The position numbers were made by a program, and so were the translations under genes. The notes below the pieces were generated by a model. That model made no database searches. It was given only the letters and a program-made list of their open reading frames with translations, and was not told where the DNA came from. 64,000 nucleotides of DNA from Rhodospirillales bacterium (GTDB taxonomy: Bacteria; Pseudomonadota; Alphaproteobacteria; Rhodospirillales; UBA2165), in the NCBI GenBank assembly GCA_965207535.1, contig CBDBMR010000010.1, positions 65,400-129,399 on the forward strand. Reading direction: 5' to 3'. Shown one piece after another: positions 12,274 to 31,161 of this stretch (positions within the stretch are counted from its first letter, which is position 1; every line of letters starts with the position of its first letter).

Positions 12274-13086
12274 TCATGCGGTCTTGGCGTCGCCCGGAAT
12301 GGTCGGATCGCTGCCCGCCGCGTACGTCGCTTGTTTACGCCACTCGATGACCGCCTTTTCGAACTGCGGGCGCTGCAGGATGCGCTCGTACCAGTCCCGG
12401 ACATTCGGATACGGACCGAAGTCGAAGCTGCCGGCCAAGAGGGTCGTGTAGGTGGGCGACCAGGAAATATCCGCCAGCGTGTAGGCGTCGCCGACTATCC
12501 AGCCGCCATCCCCAATCGCCTCCTCGATCTCGGCGAAGGTTTGATTGAGCAGGCCGATCGCCCTATTTGCGTCCTCTTCGGTAAAGCTCCTGCCGTGACT
12601 GTGCTTGGCATGGAACGCGGCGAGGTCGGGATCGGTTTGAAGCTTGTCGTACAGCGCCTGTTCTTCGTCGGTCTTCGAAAGCAGCGCCGCGTTTACCTTG
12701 TAATACTGATAGGTCTTGATCGCCGGCAGATGCAGATCGCCGGACAGCTTGAGCCAGCGGTCGATCTCGGCCTGGCGGTCGGCGGGGACATCCCGGAACC
12801 CGGGCTCCGGAAATTTCTCCTCGAGATGGAGCATGATGTCGTTGGACTCGGTGATGACCGTGCCGTCATCCACCAGGGCCGGGACCACGCCTTTCGGGTT
12901 GATCCCGAAATATTCCTCCGAGATGTTTTCCTTCTTGCCCAGATCGATGTGGTGGCTGGTCCAGGGCAGTTCCTTCTCTTCCAGCAGCAACCGCACCCGG
13001 GCCGAGCAGTTCGAGCGGTTGGTGTGATAGAGGTGAAGACCCTTGAACTCGAGAACCGAAATGTTGGTGGGGGTGATGAATACCAT
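12274..13086 (-). CDS. glutathione S-transferase family protein
   Basis: The N-terminal thioredoxin-like domain carries an SNCSARVRLLL active-site region, followed by a GST C-terminal domain. 270 aa. Confidence 0.8.
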   Translation of the reverse strand: MVFITPTNISVLEFKGLHLYHTNRSNCSARVRLLLEEKELPWTSHHIDLGKKENISEEYFGINPKGVVPALVDDGTVITESNDIMLHLEEKFPEPGFRDVPADRQAEIDRWLKLSGDLHLPAIKTYQYYKVNAALLSKTDEEQALYDKLQTDPDLAAFHAKHSHGRSFTEEDANRAIGLLNQTFAEIEEAIGDGGWIVGDAYTLADISWSPTYTTLLAGSFDFGPYPNVRDWYERILQRPQFEKAVIEWRKQATYAAGSDPTIPGDAKTA

Positions 13087-13098
13087 ATTGCTTCCCGC

Positions 13099-14205
13099 TT
13101 ACATCTCATCCGGATAGTGGGTGCGGCTGTAGACCGACGTCCGGAAGTCGTTGATCCCGAGCTCGGCCCGGATGTCCTTGGAATTCTTCAACATGGGTAG
13201 TTCCGACGGAATGCCGGTGCCGTTCGCCAACCGGTCATTCTTGGTGAATGTCGCGGCAATGGCGGATGCGGCCGAGACCGCCTTCGGGCCCAGGGTCTCG
13301 GCGACGTCGGCGCGGGCTCGGTCCAGCGCCGGCCGGTCCGGTCCGATCGCCGCATCGGCGAAGGCCAGAAGCTCCTTGCCGCCCGGAACCCCGCTGTCCC
13401 GGGACGGGTCGATCAGGGCCTGCAGGTTGATGTCGAGACCGGTTTCGCGTCCACTCTCACGGAGGAACCAGGCATGGCCGGCGGTTCAGTAAAAGCACTC
13501 GTTGATGGCGGAAACCCGGCCCGCGATAAGCTCCACCTGGGACCGGCTGAACCCCTCATGATGCTGGTAATCCTTGATCATGATGTTCTTCATCGGCAGG
13601 TACTGCGCCTCTTCCAGCTCCACCGCCTGACGGAACTCGTCCGGCACCAGGCTGACGGAGCGCAGGATGTAGGGCCGGTAACCCTCGCCGAAGATGGCCT
13701 TGGCCTCCTCGCCGCCTTCCGGGAGGTTGGGGACCGTCGGCACCCAGGCCAGCTCCTTCTTGGCGACGCCGGGCCGCGCGCCCGAGGCCTTGCCCTCCCG
13801 CGCGGCCGGCAGGGGGCGCAGCGGCACGCCGATGCTGCGGGCGAAGACATCCATGCAGGTCAGCCGCGAAACGATGCCGACGATTTCGACATACTCCTCG
13901 TCGCTCAGGCCGCCCGATCTGGCGTCCTCGTAGGATTGTTGATCGAAATCCTGCGGCGAGACCGCGAGATGCCGGATCATCTCGCGGGCGGCCTTGGGCA
14001 ACTCGACATCGCTCTCCGGCCCGGCGCCGTCATGCTTTTCCTGAACGCCCGCCTCGTAGCAGGCCTCGCGAATTTCGCGCGCGACCGCCAGGCGCTGCGC
14101 GGCGCCTCCCCAGGTGCCGGGATCGGCGAGGTGATCCAGTTGCGCCGCGTGAGCCTCGTCGATCTCGGCCCGGACCGGATATTCGGAATCTGCGTAGAGT
14201 GTCAT
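13099..14205 (-). CDS. two-domain AhpD/CMD-family peroxidase-related protein with an in-frame TGA (candidate selenocysteine; alternatively a nonsense pseudogene)
   Basis: Track ORF 13486..14205 ends ...RVSAINECFY followed by TGA (13486-13488). Hand translation of the same frame continues TAGHAWFLRESGRETGLDINLQALIDPSRDSGVPGGKELLAFADAAIGPDRPALDRARADVAETLGPKAVSAASAIAATFTKNDRLANGTGIPSELPMLKNSKDIRAELGINDFRTSVYSRTHYPDEM. There is no further stop until TAA at 13099-13101, 13 nt before the GST start. C-F-Y-[TGA]-T-A-G-H reproduces the CMD/AhpD CxxCxxxH motif. Confidence 0.6.
13441..13469 (-). other. candidate bacterial SECIS-like hairpin downstream of the in-frame UGA
   Basis: The minus-strand RNA GGUUCCUCCGUGAGAGUGGACGCGAAACC starts 17 nt after the UGA. 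Hand-folded outer pairs are GGUU/AACC and inner pairs are UCCG/UGGA (with G-U pairs). The apical loop is purine-rich and contains G and U. It was folded by eye only. Confidence 0.3.
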
Positions 14206-14336
14206 TTTCGAAGCTCTCCCCTAAAACTGCCCGCCTTGAGGCCGGGTCCGGCACTCAGCATGGGGCCCGGTGTCCGGCGCGCCACCCAAATTTTCCGAAT
14301 GTCCACCCTGTGGAAGGCAATTCATGCCGGTGCCCC

Positions 14337-27028: not shown

Positions 27029-29110
27029 CTAGGCCTTCTCCCCTTGGGCCTTCTCCACCTGGCAGAGGGACGACTTGAAGCTCGGATAGCCCGAGACCGG
27101 ATCGAGATTGTCGTCCGGGTAGAGGGAGTTGATGTTGGCCTCGCGCCAGCCGTGGGGCGCGTGCACCACGCCGTCCAGGATGATGTCGGTCACCCAGGCC
27201 TTCATCCGGATCGAGTTGACCGGCGAGGAGATCACCACGTCGTCGCCGTCCGAGATGCCCCGCGCCTCCGCATCCTTGGGGTTCATCTGGATTCGCGGAT
27301 GGGGCTCGCGCTTGCGCAGGGTCTCCAGGTTGCGGCCCTGGGAATGGGTGAAGTTGTTGCTCCGCCCGCCCGACGTCAGCACCAGGGGATAGTCCTTCGC
27401 CACATGGGGCGCGCTCACCGGCGACCACTTGGGCTCGCGGTAGACGGGGAGCGCATCCTGGCCGATCCCGTCGAGCTCGGTCGAGGAGAACTCCACCTTG
27501 CCGGTCGGGGTCTTGAAGCCGACCTCCTCGTATTCCCGCTCCCGGCGTTCGCCCAAATCCTCGTTCATGCTCTTGCCGTTCTTGGGCAAATCGTCGAAGC
27601 CCATGGTGAGGGGCGTCATCCGTTCGGCGTAGCTGGCATGAATGTCGCCGCCCCAGAACTGATCGCCGTGACCCAGCGCGGCGGCGAGATCGAACAGCAT
27701 CTCCGTATCGCCGTGGGCCGCGCCCCGCGGGCTGACCGCCGCCGGGCGGTACTGCACCCGGCCGGCCAGCGTGGTCACCAGGTCCTGGCGCTCCAGGTGG
27801 GTGGCCGTCGGCAGGAACACCGAGGCCGCGTCGACCGTCGGCGTATCGAAGAAGTCGGCGACCAGGAACACGTCCAGCGTCCTCAGCGCCTTCTCGAGCC
27901 GGTTGGAGTTGGGCCACATCATCAGGTTGGTGCCCATGGCGACCACGCCCTTGATTTTGCCCTGCTCGATGCTCTCGGCCAGCAGCATGGCCTGGCCTTC
28001 GTTGTAGTGATCGACGAAGAGCGGGAACCGCTCATGGCCCATCCGCTTGCCGGGCGCGTTGTCGACGCCGCTGCCGGCGGCGATGCCCTTCTGCTTGAGG
28101 CGTTCCGGCCAGGGCCGGTTGCCGCCCTTGACGTCCAGGTTGCCGGTGAGCGCCGACAGCAGCATCACCGCCCGGTGGGTCTGCAGGCCGTTGGTGTGCT
28201 GGACCAGCGCTTCTTGCGAAATGGTGATCTGCGCCGGCTTGGAGGTGGCGTAGAGCCTCGCCGCGGCAACGATCTTGTCGGCCGGTACCCGGGTGATTTC
28301 CTCGACCCGCTCGGGCGTGAAGTCCTTCACGTACTCCCGGTACTCGTCGAAGCCGTGAGCGTACTCATCGAGGAAGGCCGTGTCCTCCAGTCCCTCGTCC
28401 AGGATCACGTGCGCCCAGCCGAGGGCCAGCGCGCCATCCGTGCCGGGGCGCGGCTGAAGATGAATCTCGGCCGCCTCGGCGATGGAGGTGCGGCGGGGAT
28501 CGACGACGATCACCGGCACCTTGCGGGATTCGGCGAGCAGGTAATGCCGGCTGTAGGGGATCAGGCTGTCCTTGGGATTGTTGGACCACACCACCCGGCA
28601 CCTGGCCTCTTCGTGGCGCATGCGGCCGGCCTGGAAGAAGTGGTTGTAGTCCTCGCCGAAGGTGAGTTCGGAGGCGACGAACGTGGCGCCGAAGCAGCAG
28701 CTCGACTCGGTGATGTAGTGGGGGGAGCCGAAGGCGTTGGCGATGCGCCGCATATAGGGCCGGGATTCCTTGGTGTAACCGACCACGAAGGCGACCTTGT
28801 CGGCGCCGTCGTTCCTGCGGATGGCGTCGAGCCGCTCGGCCGCGTTGGCAATGGCGTCGGCCCAGTTGACCATTTGCCAGTCGTCCCCGGCGCGGTCACG
28901 GATCATGGCGTGGACAAGCCGCTGATCGCTTTCCCGCTGCTCCAGCATGGCGGTCGCCCGAACGCATTCGGGGTGCGAGATGTCGAGAATCTCGTCCCCC
29001 TGGCTCACCACCGTGATCGGACAGTTGGTGGTGCACATGTAGCAGGTGGAATAGGTGGTCTTGGTCTCGTTCAGGCCCTCGGCCGCGGGCCGTGTGACGA
29101 CATCATCCAT
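27029..29110 (-). CDS. molybdopterin-dependent oxidoreductase (DMSO reductase superfamily), cytoplasmic, stand-alone
   Basis: Trimmed to ATG 29110 (MDDVVTRP...). The N-terminal 4Fe-4S motif is C-YM-C-TTN-C...C. The size is about 693 aa. There is no Tat signal and no adjacent FeS or membrane subunit. Confidence 0.85.
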   Translation of the reverse strand: MDDVVTRPAAEGLNETKTTYSTCYMCTTNCPITVVSQGDEILDISHPECVRATAMLEQRESDQRLVHAMIRDRAGDDWQMVNWADAIANAAERLDAIRRNDGADKVAFVVGYTKESRPYMRRIANAFGSPHYITESSCCFGATFVASELTFGEDYNHFFQAGRMRHEEARCRVVWSNNPKDSLIPYSRHYLLAESRKVPVIVVDPRRTSIAEAAEIHLQPRPGTDGALALGWAHVILDEGLEDTAFLDEYAHGFDEYREYVKDFTPERVEEITRVPADKIVAAARLYATSKPAQITISQEALVQHTNGLQTHRAVMLLSALTGNLDVKGGNRPWPERLKQKGIAAGSGVDNAPGKRMGHERFPLFVDHYNEGQAMLLAESIEQGKIKGVVAMGTNLMMWPNSNRLEKALRTLDVFLVADFFDTPTVDAASVFLPTATHLERQDLVTTLAGRVQYRPAAVSPRGAAHGDTEMLFDLAAALGHGDQFWGGDIHASYAERMTPLTMGFDDLPKNGKSMNEDLGERREREYEEVGFKTPTGKVEFSSTELDGIGQDALPVYREPKWSPVSAPHVAKDYPLVLTSGGRSNNFTHSQGRNLETLRKREPHPRIQMNPKDAEARGISDGDDVVISSPVNSIRMKAWVTDIILDGVVHAPHGWREANINSLYPDDNLDPVSGYPSFKSSLCQVEKAQGEKA

Positions 29111-29232
29111 GGTCTTCAATCCCCCCGGAAAACCCGGTCGCTCGAATGTGGATTCAACAGTGCCGAATACCGGCGTCTGACTGTGAAGCCCGAGTTGACC
29201 ATATCGTTGCAAATGCATCAAGTTGAGAAGGT

Positions 29233-29242
29233 GGGGGGGGGG
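29233..29242. repeat. G10/C10 homopolymer in the intergenic region upstream of the molybdoenzyme gene
   Basis: I counted ten consecutive G on the plus strand (gtGGGGGGGGGGcaacg). Confidence 0.8.
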
Positions 29243-29307
29243 CAACGTGACATGGAGGTGATCCAGGCTCTGCCGGACGCCGGAGCCAACGGGATCGATG
29301 CCGGGCC

Positions 29308-31161
29308 TTATCGCTTGACCCTCGCCTTGTCCGGGTCTTCCCACCAGGTTTCGACCACGATCCCGTAGAGGGGCGTGACCTCGGGCCGGCCGAACCTGTC
29401 CCAATAGGCAACCCCGTCGTCCTCCTGATGATAGAGGGGAATGAAGTAGTGTCCCCATAGCAGCACCCTGTCCATGGCGCGGACGATGTCGACGAAAGCA
29501 TCGCGTTCGCGCGCCTTGGTCATGCGGTCGATCAGCTCGTCGACGACCGGATTCCGTATCCCGGGATAGTTGCGCGTCCCTTCCTGTGCGGCCGCCTGGG
29601 CGCCCCAATAGAACGCCTGTTCGTTCCCCGGGGACAGGGACATGCCCCAGCGGTAGACGATCATGTCGAAGTCGTAGTCGGTCAGCCTGTATTGATACTG
29701 CGACGTGTCGACGGTGCGGACCCGCGCCTCGACGCCCAAGCGCTCGAGATGGCGGGCGAAGGAGAGGGCGATCTTTTCGTGCGCCGGATTCACCAGCAGG
29801 ATCTCGAACGCCATGGGCAATCCGTCCTTGGCCCGCCGCAGCGATCCGTCCCGCACTTCCCAGCCCGCCTCGGCCAGCAATCGCGTTGCCGCCTTGAGGT
29901 TTGCCCGTGGGCGGCCGCCGGCCCCCGGCGGCCGGTATGGCGCTTCGAACAGCTCGTGGGGCAGCTGCTGCCGGAAAGGCTCCAGAAGACCGCGTTCACG
30001 GGCTTGGGGAACGCCGCGCGAACCGAGTTCCGAATTGTCGAAGATGCTGCCCGTGCGTTTGTAGGCGCCATGCAACAGCGTCTTGTTGATCCAGGCGAAG
30101 TCGAACGCATGCGCGAGCGCATACCGAACCTTGCGGTCGGCGAATATCTCCCGCCGTGTGTTGAAAACCAGGGCGGACAGGCCCGAGGGCCGGCCGTGCG
30201 GCAGCCGTACCAGCTTCACGCGGCCGTCCGCAACCGCCGGAAAGTCGTACGCGGTTGCCCAACGCTTGCCGGAGATCTCCAACCGAAGGTCGTACTCGCC
30301 GGCCTTGAAGGCCTCCATCATCACATTGCCGTCGCGGTAGTAGTCGTAGCGGATGCGGTCGAAGTTGTGCTGCCCGCGGTTGATAGGCAGGTGCCGTCCC
30401 CAATAGTCGGGGTCACGGCGATAGGTGATGCCACGGCCCGCGTCCACGCTCTCGACGCGATAAGGGCCGGTGCCGACCGGTGGAACGAGCGTCGTACGCT
30501 CGAACTCCACCGATGCGTAGTAGGACTTGGACAGGATCGGCATCAATCCCATAATCAGCGGCAGCTCGCGATCCGGCGACGCGGTGTCGAAGACAAACCG
30601 TATCGAGCGTGCGTCGGGCCGCTCGATGCGTTGGACCTGCCGGTAATACAGCCGGTGATTGGGCCGTCCGTGTTCCTTGAGGGTCTCCCAGGAGAAGACG
30701 ACATCGTCCACGGTGACCGGCCGGCCATCATGAAAGCGCGCTTCCGGCCTCAACACGAACGTGACGGACGAACGGTCATCCGGCACCTCGATCGACTGGG
30801 CGATCAGACCGTAGAGCGAGAACGGCTCGTCCCACGCCCGCTTCAGAAGGCTCTCGAAGACCAGGTGACGTCCGCGCGCCGGCACGCCCTTGATGATGAA
30901 GGGGTTGAGGCTGTCGAAGGTCCCGGTCACCGCACGCCGAAGCTCGCCGCCCTTCGGCGCGTCGGGATTCACGTAGTCGAGATGGCGGAACCCGGAATCG
31001 TATTTGGGTTCCCCATGCATGGCGATGCCGTGGCTCTGCGCCGCCGCGGGATGCGCACCGCCCGCGGCCAGAACCACGAGGAGCCAGACGAGCGCCGGCG
31101 TCACGCGCCGGAGCAGTTTGGCCAGATGGGTCTTGGCTTCGAATGCGCCGATCTCGGTCAT
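29308..31161 (-). CDS. ABC transporter substrate-binding protein, family 5 (YejA/peptide-opine-nickel type), orphan
   Basis: 617 aa. The motif HGIAMHGEPKY...YVNPDAPKGGELR is typical of YejA-like receptors. No permease or ATPase gene is adjacent. Confidence 0.8.
   Translation of the reverse strand: MTEIGAFEAKTHLAKLLRRVTPALVWLLVVLAAGGAHPAAAQSHGIAMHGEPKYDSGFRHLDYVNPDAPKGGELRRAVTGTFDSLNPFIIKGVPARGRHLVFESLLKRAWDEPFSLYGLIAQSIEVPDDRSSVTFVLRPEARFHDGRPVTVDDVVFSWETLKEHGRPNHRLYYRQVQRIERPDARSIRFVFDTASPDRELPLIMGLMPILSKSYYASVEFERTTLVPPVGTGPYRVESVDAGRGITYRRDPDYWGRHLPINRGQHNFDRIRYDYYRDGNVMMEAFKAGEYDLRLEISGKRWATAYDFPAVADGRVKLVRLPHGRPSGLSALVFNTRREIFADRKVRYALAHAFDFAWINKTLLHGAYKRTGSIFDNSELGSRGVPQARERGLLEPFRQQLPHELFEAPYRPPGAGGRPRANLKAATRLLAEAGWEVRDGSLRRAKDGLPMAFEILLVNPAHEKIALSFARHLERLGVEARVRTVDTSQYQYRLTDYDFDMIVYRWGMSLSPGNEQAFYWGAQAAAQEGTRNYPGIRNPVVDELIDRMTKARERDAFVDIVRAMDRVLLWGHYFIPLYHQEDDGVAYWDRFGRPEVTPLYGIVVETWWEDPDKARVKR

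Follow-up and report, generated by a model that had tools for sequence, protein, structure and literature searches.

The minus strand of the window (the whole 64-kb stretch of DNA that was analysed) carries a predicted selenoprotein gene followed closely by a glutathione S-transferase (GST) gene (Table 1). The first gene begins with an ATG, upstream of which lies a Shine-Dalgarno-like element, and opens as a 239-codon ORF that ends ...S-A-I-N-E-C-F-Y and runs into an in-frame TGA. Past this TGA the same frame reads T-A-G-H-A-W-F-L-R-E-S-G... and stays open for 128 codons up to a TAA at 13101-13099, an arrangement that had been described in the initial annotation and was borne out by translation. 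Within 13099-13485 the ORF list contains no ORF of at least 60 aa initiating in this frame, and the open stretch of about 390 bp behind the TGA is therefore start-less, as had also been proposed. The GST gene reported to lie right behind the TAA has its ATG at 13086, which leaves a gap of 12 nt.

Table 1 Coordinates of the predicted selenoprotein gene, its internal features and the adjacent gene.
Feature	Position	Strand	Description
Predicted selenoprotein gene, complete	13099..14205	-	368 codons plus TAA; AhpD-related (seleno)protein, family NF041238; from translation
Shine-Dalgarno-like GGGGAGAG	14221-14214	-	Upstream of the ATG; read off the sequence
Start codon ATG	14205-14203	-	Part of 14203..14221; read off the sequence
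Redox motif C237-F-Y-U240-T-A-G-H244	13474..13497	-	TGC 13497-13495, CAT 13476-13474
In-frame UGA, codon 240, predicted selenocysteine	13486..13488	-	Second-Cys position of CxxCxxxH
128 post-UGA codons	13102..13485	-	C-terminal helices of the AhpD-like domain
Predicted bacterial SECIS core	13449..13468	-	5'-GUUCCUC [CGUGA] GAG (U) GGAC-3', 7 bp
Glutathione S-transferase (GST) gene	12274..13086	-	12 nt downstream; GST-family NCBIfam matches

The read-through translation, scored against NCBIfam with U replaced by C, matches NF041238 ('AhpD_rel_CFYUT, alkylhydroperoxidase-related (seleno)protein'), a curated model whose name carries the C-F-Y-U-T motif itself, with a score of 367.9 bits where 175 is the cutoff (E=5.7e-110). 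The match runs end to end, with residues 11-355 of the protein covering positions 1-356 of the 357 in the profile. The Pfam CMD family (PF02627) is matched with 26.7 bits (gathering score 23) over residues 216-252, which span the CxxCxxxH motif, and the ahpD_dom model (TIGR00778) scores 27.7, marginally below its cutoff of 27.8. Scores for AhpD sensu stricto (TIGR00777, 20.5 against 191.95) and for the peroxidase-related family TIGR01926 (41 against 81.8) fall far under the cutoffs, so the protein is related to both but belongs to a separate family. The window gene is typical of that selenoprotein family, which is already catalogued; the initial annotation was made unaware of this, and its observation was correct but ordinary. 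Query coverage is exactly 65% for the best 120 database homologues, almost all of them 239 aa long, and therefore gene callers halt at the same TGA. More than 100 public clusters consist of such 239-residue 'hypothetical proteins', gene calls cut at the UGA, and the C-terminal part frequently appears in the annotation of other genomes as an ORF of its own of 110-150 aa.

Profile positions 180-330 of the family align with residues 40-188 of the AhpD-like structure 6k40 with E=5e-15. The motif C-F-Y-U-T-A-G-H, present in the window as N-E-C-F-Y-TGA-T-A-G-H at 13503..13474 with U contributed by the in-frame TGA, aligns residue for residue with the CxxCxxxH motif of 6k40 ('LNRCVYCAVSHGAALRE' of 6k40 against 'INECFYCTAGHAWFLRE') and is also aligned with that of the AhpD-like PDB entry 2oyo, in agreement with the earlier proposal that it represents the CxxCxxxH of the AhpD/CMD family. 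An AF2 model of the Cys-form homologue P0206 reached a pLDDT of 89.4 and a pTM of 0.91; its best PDB matches are 2prr, 6k40, 3c1l and 2oyo (TM 0.62-0.72, target-normalised), and the structural matches also include Bmp8, a debrominase of the CMD family. An additional helical domain of about 150 residues is predicted to precede the AhpD/CMD-type domain. P0206 is 31% identical to the window protein over a full-length alignment, and by homology to this model the C-terminal half of the window protein (roughly residues 150-368) is predicted to form an all-helical AhpD/CMD-type domain.

The codon-240 column is TGA in 88/88 independent homologous loci, whose identity to the window is 35-97% and whose assemblies come from different projects and technologies. 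The patterns used to find these loci stopped short of codon 240, so the search was not biased towards TGA. Among them are six MAGs, the matches of a protein search of genome contigs, that are 93-97% identical to the window. In alignment A3 the C, the F and the U/C column do not vary. Cys occupies the codon-240 column in five full-length homologues of 336-402 aa (P0154, P0185, P0206, P0222 and P0261), which read CFYC and align on either side of the column; these Cys forms are rare and distant within the family. Of the two residues to be looked for in homologues at the UGA position, Cys is encoded in some and Sec is predicted in others. TGA also terminates ordinary genes, 8/38 in the window and 17/79 in the family, and the genetic code is therefore not reassigned; a code with TGA as a sense codon was ruled out because family-matched genes of the window, as well as of related loci, end in TGA. 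Further in-frame TGAs with coding-like flanks, looked for across the window, amounted to antisense or out-of-frame noise only, and no second selenoprotein candidate came to light.

The predicted SECIS core begins 17 nt past the UGA, has its apical loop at 13461-13457 and contains a bulged U at 13453. All seven pairs are formed in 61/77 sequences and at least six in 76/77, no alternative offset exceeds 21% in the per-sequence register analysis, and the loop consensus in the family is C-G-U/G-G-N. Across the family the hairpin occurs in two registers, which the per-sequence analysis and a subset alignment resolved; either register alone gives about 80% pairing in fixed columns, and RNAalifold, run on the 77-sequence alignment, recovered no more than the three inner pairs that are invariant, the outer stem being split between the two registers. 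The outer pairs vary (UA, GC, CG, UG and AU). In the subset without the bulge, 93.8% of cells are paired compared with 82.9% in shuffles (0/500) and 31-53% when slid, and double-sided changes occur at three pairs; part of this covariation goes with amino-acid changes in the codons that the stem overlaps and the sequences are related, so that the shuffle statistics overstate independence. Leu248 is encoded by CTC in 69/69 sequences, Arg249 by CGT in 63/69 and by CGG in 6/69, whereas the 39 other conserved degenerate codons have entropies of 0.86-2.46 bits, making synonymous-site freezing unique to these two among 41 conserved degenerate codons. The pattern TGA-N21-CTCCGKGNGRG occurs once in the window, with 0.01 occurrences expected. 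Of the hairpin originally drawn at 13469..13441, the start 17 nt past the UGA is confirmed, for a stem-loop that is conserved in the family, and the extent is not, the family element being 13468..13449: the outer GGUU/AACC stem (13469-13466 with 13444-13441) is found in the window clade only, hence is not conserved, and was dropped. The core CUC-CGUGA-GAG with covarying outer pairs could be used as a simple search pattern for the family. With its frozen Leu-Arg codons, the core is also an example of an overlapping RNA signal that constrains protein sequence.

The bSECIS model specifies a loop of 3-9 nt, an upper stem of 4-16 bp, a UGA-to-loop distance of 16-37 nt, a G among the first two loop positions and an MFE of at most -7.5 kcal/mol. 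The geometry of the hairpin agrees with this model (7 bp, a distance of 24 nt and a 5-nt loop in which U follows the G at position 2), and in the window sequence the hairpin is thermodynamically marginal. Folded alone, it is reproduced by the MFE structure at -5.9 kcal/mol (z=-0.2 against shuffles), weaker than the threshold; the hairpins of other subfamilies reach -9.4 to -12.1 kcal/mol. An extended fold that includes it has -15.1 kcal/mol compared with -18.9 kcal/mol for a competing alternative, and in longer contexts ViennaRNA favours competing folds, with a pairing probability near 0 for the hairpin. In the folding check proposed at the outset, the isolated hairpin was recovered, and the MFE fold of 13400-13500 is unremarkable (z=-0.57), with the UGA itself drawn into another hairpin that is not conserved. 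Rfam contains no SECIS family match, either in the whole window at the gathering threshold or in 13380-13520 at E<=10, where the hit was a chance snoRNA (E=7).

This marginal stability is one of the points that favour recoding of the UGA to something other than Sec, in which a UCA-anticodon or near-cognate tRNA would insert Cys or Trp, or to operation of Sec machinery of an unusual type, with the hairpin stimulating read-through generically in both cases. In some bacteria, unusual tRNAs have been reported to recode UGA to Cys, and standard Sec machinery is not seen within the window: as the initial annotation had stated, selA, selB, selC and selD are missing from the 64 kb, in which ARAGORN detected no tRNA, Rfam likewise gave no hit, and no SelA, SelB or SelD occurs among the 28 gene-like ORFs with Pfam/NCBIfam matches. 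ARAGORN also found no tRNA-Sec in 31 longer homologous loci. Nevertheless, a generic stimulator sits poorly with a hairpin of bSECIS geometry that includes G-U/G at loop positions 2-3 and the 24-nt spacing. The site is a redox-active Cys column, which makes it a classic Sec/Cys pair, the family is curated as a selenoprotein, and TGA still stops other genes in the window. We consider non-Sec recoding very unlikely.

The sequence behind the UGA bears on a second alternative, in which the TGA is a true stop, the product is a 239-residue protein and the trailing 384 nt represent either a decaying remnant or some small, unrelated gene. This is how automatic calls in more than 100 public clusters and the separate C-terminal ORFs of other genomes present the locus, and the absence of Sec machinery from the window fits it as well. 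A remnant would gather stops and frameshifts, yet the post-UGA frame is open over 117-159 codons in 78/79 complete loci across the 35-97% identity range. The post-UGA part of these 78 loci is 33-96% identical to that of the window, and its substitutions are dominated by third, synonymous positions in the same pattern as those before the UGA; the 128 codons are under protein-coding selection. Similarity through the C-terminal 128 aa, which the initial annotation had called for, is therefore found, and the Cys-form homologues run unbroken through the site. In addition, the stretch in the window has no usable start codon, and a product of 239 residues would break off midway through the AhpD-like domain without the second catalytic residue and the His, consistent with the earlier argument that a true stop would cut the domain at its active site. 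A genuine stop is accordingly extremely unlikely. The chance that the organism has the Cys form, its TGC or TGT turned into TGA by faulty sequencing or assembly, is close to nil: Cys forms of the family do exist, and a related long-read assembly (L011) has an apparent frameshift in the gene, but the same TGA stands in all 88 independent assemblies, including the six closely related MAGs, and always with the downstream hairpin and frozen synonymous sites for which a Cys form has no need.

Our preferred reading, to which we assign a probability of roughly 0.93, is that 14205..13099 is one gene encoding a 368-residue NF041238 selenoprotein in which UGA codon 240 is read as Sec. The candidate AhpD/CMD-family selenoprotein of the initial annotation is upheld by the NF041238 and Pfam CMD matches, the conserved TGA, the Cys forms, the coding selection and the stem-loop. 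In the mechanism that we propose, a ribosome reaching the UGA would encounter the stem-loop 17 nt downstream acting as a bacterial SECIS (7 bp, loop CGUGA, G-U at positions 2-3), which would recruit SelB·GTP·Sec-tRNA(Sec), and this complex would outcompete release factor 2. The product would carry a Cys237-x-x-Sec240-x-x-x-His244 centre within the all-helical AhpD/CMD-type domain. By analogy with AhpD, this centre may cycle between selenol/thiol and selenenylsulfide, and the protein may be a peroxide- or disulfide-reducing oxidoreductase, possibly with the GST encoded 12 nt downstream as a partner.

The GST gene is probably co-transcribed with the selenoprotein gene. Its NCBIfam matches are all under the curated cutoffs, the best being maiA with 80.5 bits against 171. 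In L009, L012 and L013/L014 a GST orthologue of 73% identity directly precedes the selenoprotein gene, and in L037 one lies at most 2.5 kb away; GST is thus a recurrent neighbour, adjacent in two different gene orders. Because Sec is predicted at 88/88 loci, the few Cys forms are distant, and GST is adjacent in two orders, one may speculate that the family carries out glutathione-coupled chemistry impossible for Cys, such as reductive dehalogenation of the deiodinase/Bmp8 type, and not generic peroxide reduction. The specific support for such chemistry consists of gene neighbourhood and fold-level resemblance, and we regard it as improbable. Elsewhere in the window, the molybdopterin oxidoreductase at 27029-29608 was considered as a Sec-type formate dehydrogenase and ruled out, its ORF being uninterrupted.

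The main value of the selenoprotein assignment is for annotation, as gene calls cut at the UGA hide a complete CxxU redox centre. The gene marks its Rhodospirillales-type genome as a probable selenium user and predicts that selA, selB, selC and selD lie elsewhere in that genome; current understanding of selenoproteins is unchanged.

Compared with the bSECISearch consensus, whose prototype is the E. coli fdhF SECIS, the predicted element is likewise a stem-loop within the coding sequence with a small apical loop bearing G then U/G, its spacing is within 16-37 nt, and in the window clade its stem has a bulged U. It differs in that the minimal hairpin of the window is weaker than -7.5 kcal/mol, and its binding by SelB is putative. 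Relative to the fdhF SECIS, the loop lies about 6 nt farther from the UGA. AhpD and the peroxidase-related AhpD-core proteins (PF02627, TIGR01926; 6k40, 2prr, 3c1l and 2oyo) are all-helical like the predicted domain and have CxxCxxxH in the same place. Those proteins have about 180-200 residues and two Cys, whereas the window protein has 368 residues, a predicted Sec for the second Cys and, at its N-terminus, the additional domain of about 150 residues; its peroxidase activity is putative, by analogy. The 'AhpD-like 1/2' and 'CMD domain-containing' selenoproteins of the GOS and Sargasso collections (COG2128/PF02627) share the superfamily, the CxxU centre and the marine origin; unlike the window protein they are single-domain. 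In the GOS and Sargasso surveys, AhpD-like/CMD selenoproteins rank with the most abundant families of marine selenoproteins, and the table of a 2026 review enters them under TIGR01926, PF02627 and NF041047, distinct from NF041238, which is listed there as a CxxU selenoprotein (PMC13188914). NF041238 itself goes back to the Sargasso Sea selenoproteome of Zhang, Fomenko & Gladyshev (2005, PMC1088965), where it was predicted from ocean metagenomes as 'hypothetical protein 1' and drawn with a SECIS. Our literature search found no experimental evidence for Sec in the family. The two-register 7-bp/CGUGA core, the freezing of the Leu-Arg codons and the recurrent GST may or may not figure in these earlier descriptions. 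The window gene resembles NF041238 in an HMM score twice the curated cutoff, an identical C-F-Y-U-T motif, the CxxU centre, a SECIS-like hairpin past the UGA and marine or metagenomic alphaproteobacterial sources, and it differs from the family in nothing substantial.

Direct translation of the minus strand gave 239 codons ending in S-A-I-N-E-C-F-Y and then TGA at 13488-13486, beyond which the same frame reads T-A-G-H-A-W-F-L-R-E-S-G... for 128 codons up to TAA at 13101-13099. An ORF scan found no ORF of at least 60 residues that starts inside this post-TGA stretch. The initial annotation had described a 239-codon ORF stopping after ...NECFY, a start-less frame open for 128 more codons and a GST gene close behind the TAA; all of its statements on the sequence are correct. 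TGA 13488-13486 is, by our estimate, a real Sec codon with a probability of about 0.93. The proposed AhpD/CMD-family selenoprotein is supported by a match to the family model NF041238, a conserved TGA, Cys homologues and a conserved hairpin.

For family assignment the read-through protein was searched with U written as C. It matched the NCBIfam equivalog model NF041238 ('AhpD_rel_CFYUT, alkylhydroperoxidase-related (seleno)protein') end to end, residues 11-355 on profile positions 1-356 of 357 (E=5.7e-110; 367.9 bits, where the curated cutoff is 175). Pfam CMD (PF02627) is marginally over its gathering score at residues 216-252 and the stricter AhpD models in NCBIfam score far under their cutoffs; judged by these profiles, the protein is AhpD-related but no AhpD proper. 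A profile built from both Sec and Cys forms matched Deinococcus AhpD 6k40 (E=5e-15; positions 180-330 on residues 40-188) as well as further 'peroxidase-related' AhpD-core structures, and single-sequence alignment sets C237, U240 and H244 against CxxCxxxH in AhpD-core proteins, the motif that had been read from C-F-Y-[UGA]-T-A-G-H. The AlphaFold model of P0206, a Cys-form database protein, is all-helical (pLDDT 89.4, pTM 0.91); these AhpD-core proteins lead its PDB matches (TM 0.62-0.72 on target), with two-domain Sestrin2 and the CMD-family debrominase Bmp8 ranked lower. Since profile, motif alignment and P0206 model agree on an AhpD core, residues ~150-368 are predicted to make up a whole AhpD-like domain, in whose middle the UGA falls, preceded by a predicted extra helical domain of ~150 residues. 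In this N-terminal part, distant Sec members and most Cys forms carry C-x-L-C followed by R-K-x-x-L-S-P (columns ~54-57 of the Sec and Cys protein alignment); carriers are loci L074, L076, L081, L084 and L085 and proteins P0154, P0185, P0206 and P0222. The window's clade has lost C-x-L-C and has REACYEAG in its place. The N-terminal domain may formerly have housed a redox or metal site of its own.

Among 5.8 billion predicted proteins, 264 matches were found. Of the 120 best, almost every one has a length of exactly 239 residues and covers 65% of the query, meaning that gene callers across the board halt at the same TGA. With the 128-residue tail as query, a profile-free scan of 1.84 billion representatives returned 585 proteins, most of them fragments of 110-150 residues that represent the missing halves of split gene calls. 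A handful run the full length (336-402 residues) with C-F-Y-C at the recoded site; their alignment with the Sec forms extends to either side of that column, which makes this a classic Sec/Cys pair. Unusual recoding of TGA 13488-13486, set beside this pairing, is unlikely.

At the nucleotide level we compared 91 genomic loci, from six Rhodospirillales MAGs (93-97% identity to the window), five exact-protein look-ups and 80 metagenome contigs (35-75%), the last fetched with peptide patterns that stop short of the recoded codon. The recoded column is TGA in 88 of the 88 loci that reach the motif, and in 78 of the 79 complete loci the frame beyond it continues for 117-159 codons without a stop, encoding peptides 33-96% identical to the window's. 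Third-position changes dominate the nucleotide differences in the 128 downstream codons and equally so in the 235 upstream codons (against locus L007, 63/107 downstream and 106/174 upstream). Whether homologues hold Cys or Sec at this column and align past the TGA had been named as a check, and on both counts they do. A true stop at the position where gene callers halt is very improbable; a product cut at 239 residues would have neither the second catalytic residue nor the His, nor the helices of the C-terminus. That the TGA is a sequencing error has a negligible chance, given beside its presence in 88/88 loci. A reassigned genetic code was rejected: TGA still acts as a terminator, closing 8 of the window's 38 gene-like ORFs and 17 of the 79 genes of the family. 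The one exceptional locus, L011 (6706-7612, on a 6.1-Mb contig of a long-read assembly), loses similarity ~50 codons past the UGA while its frame continues for 301 codons; the apparent frameshift is probably an assembly indel error and not biology.

Public collections (P0001-P0120; P0121-P0270) mis-annotate the AhpD_rel_CFYUT family systematically. The 239-residue N-terminal fragments go under the name 'hypothetical protein' or 'alkylhydroperoxidase family enzyme', and the C-terminal fragments of 110-150 residues are separate gene calls from fortuitous start codons. The selenoprotein itself is already known and curated. The family is 'hypothetical protein 1' of the 2005 Sargasso Sea paper, presented there as a new family of CxxU selenoproteins with four Sec sequences, Cys homologues and a drawn SECIS (PMC1088965). 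Related AhpD-like families rank among the most abundant marine selenoproteins. Our literature search found no report of experimental verification or a defined reaction for AhpD_rel_CFYUT.

Coordinates of the features discussed (window positions unless a homologous locus, L, is named)
Feature	Position	Strand	Remarks
Selenoprotein ORF start	ATG 14205	-	Shine-Dalgarno-like GGGGAGAG ahead
Predicted SECIS core	13468..13449	-	5'-GUUCCUC[CGUGA]GAG(U)GGAC-3', begins 17 nt past UGA
Next gene, GST family	12274-13086 (ATG 13086)	-	Downstream of selenoprotein gene, 12 nt past TAA; family hits all below curated cut-offs
GST orthologue (73% identity)	L009 5159-5968; L012 229-1035; L013 2159-2965		Directly upstream of selenoprotein gene
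GST orthologue	L037 381-1175		At most 2.5 kb from selenoprotein gene
192-aa CMD gene	7276-7854-like position, L007 and L009	opposite	
Molybdopterin oxidoreductase, 859 residues	27029-29608	-	PF00384 + PF01568, uninterrupted ORF

The window has 62% G+C, and its closest relatives are Rhodospirillales MAGs. The neighbours of the selenoprotein gene are metabolic: the GST, a 386-residue protein without family assignment, a MetE-like protein, a metallo-beta-lactamase-fold protein of 707 residues, a dehydratase of the IlvD family, TAXI/TRAP transporters and luciferase-like monooxygenases. Directly upstream GST orthologues occur likewise at L013/L014. Because the GST adjoins on opposite sides in different lineages, gene order hints at a functional link between GST and selenoprotein over inherited synteny. 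Loci L007 and L009 have a separate, convergent CMD-family gene (PF02627; 192 residues) ~550 nt downstream of the selenoprotein gene. As initially noted for the sel genes, the 64-kb window holds no SelA, SelB, SelD or tRNA; a scan of it for other in-frame TGAs gave no second selenoprotein candidate. Sec is commonest in the molybdopterin oxidoreductase superfamily; the window's member was rejected as a Sec-containing formate-dehydrogenase-type gene because its ORF is uninterrupted. In small samples, stop codons are TAG 21, TAA 9 and TGA 8 for the 38 gene-like ORFs (401-63598) and TGA 37, TAG 37 and TAA 28 for ORFs of related loci. Counted as trinucleotides, TGA far outnumbers the other two in the window (1806 vs 528 and 356), and an alphaproteobacterium of 62% G+C is expected to favour TGA and use TAG least.

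When 77 distinct sequences were aligned without gaps around the UGA, a nucleotide-invariant island, C-U-C-C-G-(U/G)-G-N-G-(A/G)-G, emerged 22-32 nt past it. The island forms a hairpin with a C-G-U/G-G-N pentaloop on a stem of seven pairs, the inner three invariant (CUC/GAG, or GGG) and the other four outside them. This stem occurs in two registers: in 43 sequences, the window's among them, a nucleotide bulges out behind the third pair, and in the remaining 34 none does. With the better register for each sequence, all seven pairs form in 61/77 and at least six in 76/77; at other offsets the template gives at least six in at most 21%. Outer-pair identities vary (pair 2 UA, GC, CG, UG, AU; pair 4 CG, GC, AU, GU). 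Among the sequences without the bulge, changes on both sides occur in three pairs, and 93.8% of cells are paired, against 82.9% when shuffled (0/500 reach it) and 31-53% when slid, statistics that come from related sequences and a structure derived from those same sequences. The cleanest of the RNA-signal evidence is frozen synonymous sites: Leu248 is CTC in 69/69 sequences and Arg249 CGT in 63 and CGG in 6, these codons making up the hairpin 5' arm and loop, while the other 39 of the gene's 41 conserved columns with four- or six-fold degenerate codons have codon entropies of 0.86-2.46 bits. With 0.01 occurrences expected, the window contains TGA-N21-CTCCGKGNGRG once. No SECIS family of Rfam matched, either in the whole window at the gathering threshold or in 13380-13520 at E<=10, where a chance snoRNA hit (E=7) was all that came up.

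The hairpin folded by hand in the initial annotation (13469..13441) overlaps the conserved element, and its outer stem is restricted to the window's clade. Folding, also suggested there, gave a mixed outcome: the conserved hairpin fits SECIS geometry and, in the window's own sequence, is marginal in stability (-5.9 kcal/mol, z=-0.2 vs shuffles), and ViennaRNA with longer context favours other folds, leaving it a probability of almost nil. These competitors rest on sequence conserved solely within the window's clade. Within 13430-13488 (-), one pairs GAACCG, right after the U of UGA, with CUGGUUC and another GUGAGA with UCUCG-AC downstream; the predicted stability of each exceeds that of the SECIS stem, and a ribosome paused on the UGA would cover part of one of them. 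Hairpins of other subfamilies are stronger (-9.4 to -12.1 kcal/mol). The bacterial SECIS model, as quoted in a 2026 review (PMC13188914), has a loop of 3-9 nt, a stem of 4-16 bp, 16-37 nt from UGA to loop, a G within the first two loop positions, usually then G or U, and an energy of -7.5 kcal/mol or lower. The window hairpin falls short of this energy but agrees with the model in geometry, with a loop of 5 nt that begins C-G-U, a stem of 7 bp and 24 nt from UGA to loop.
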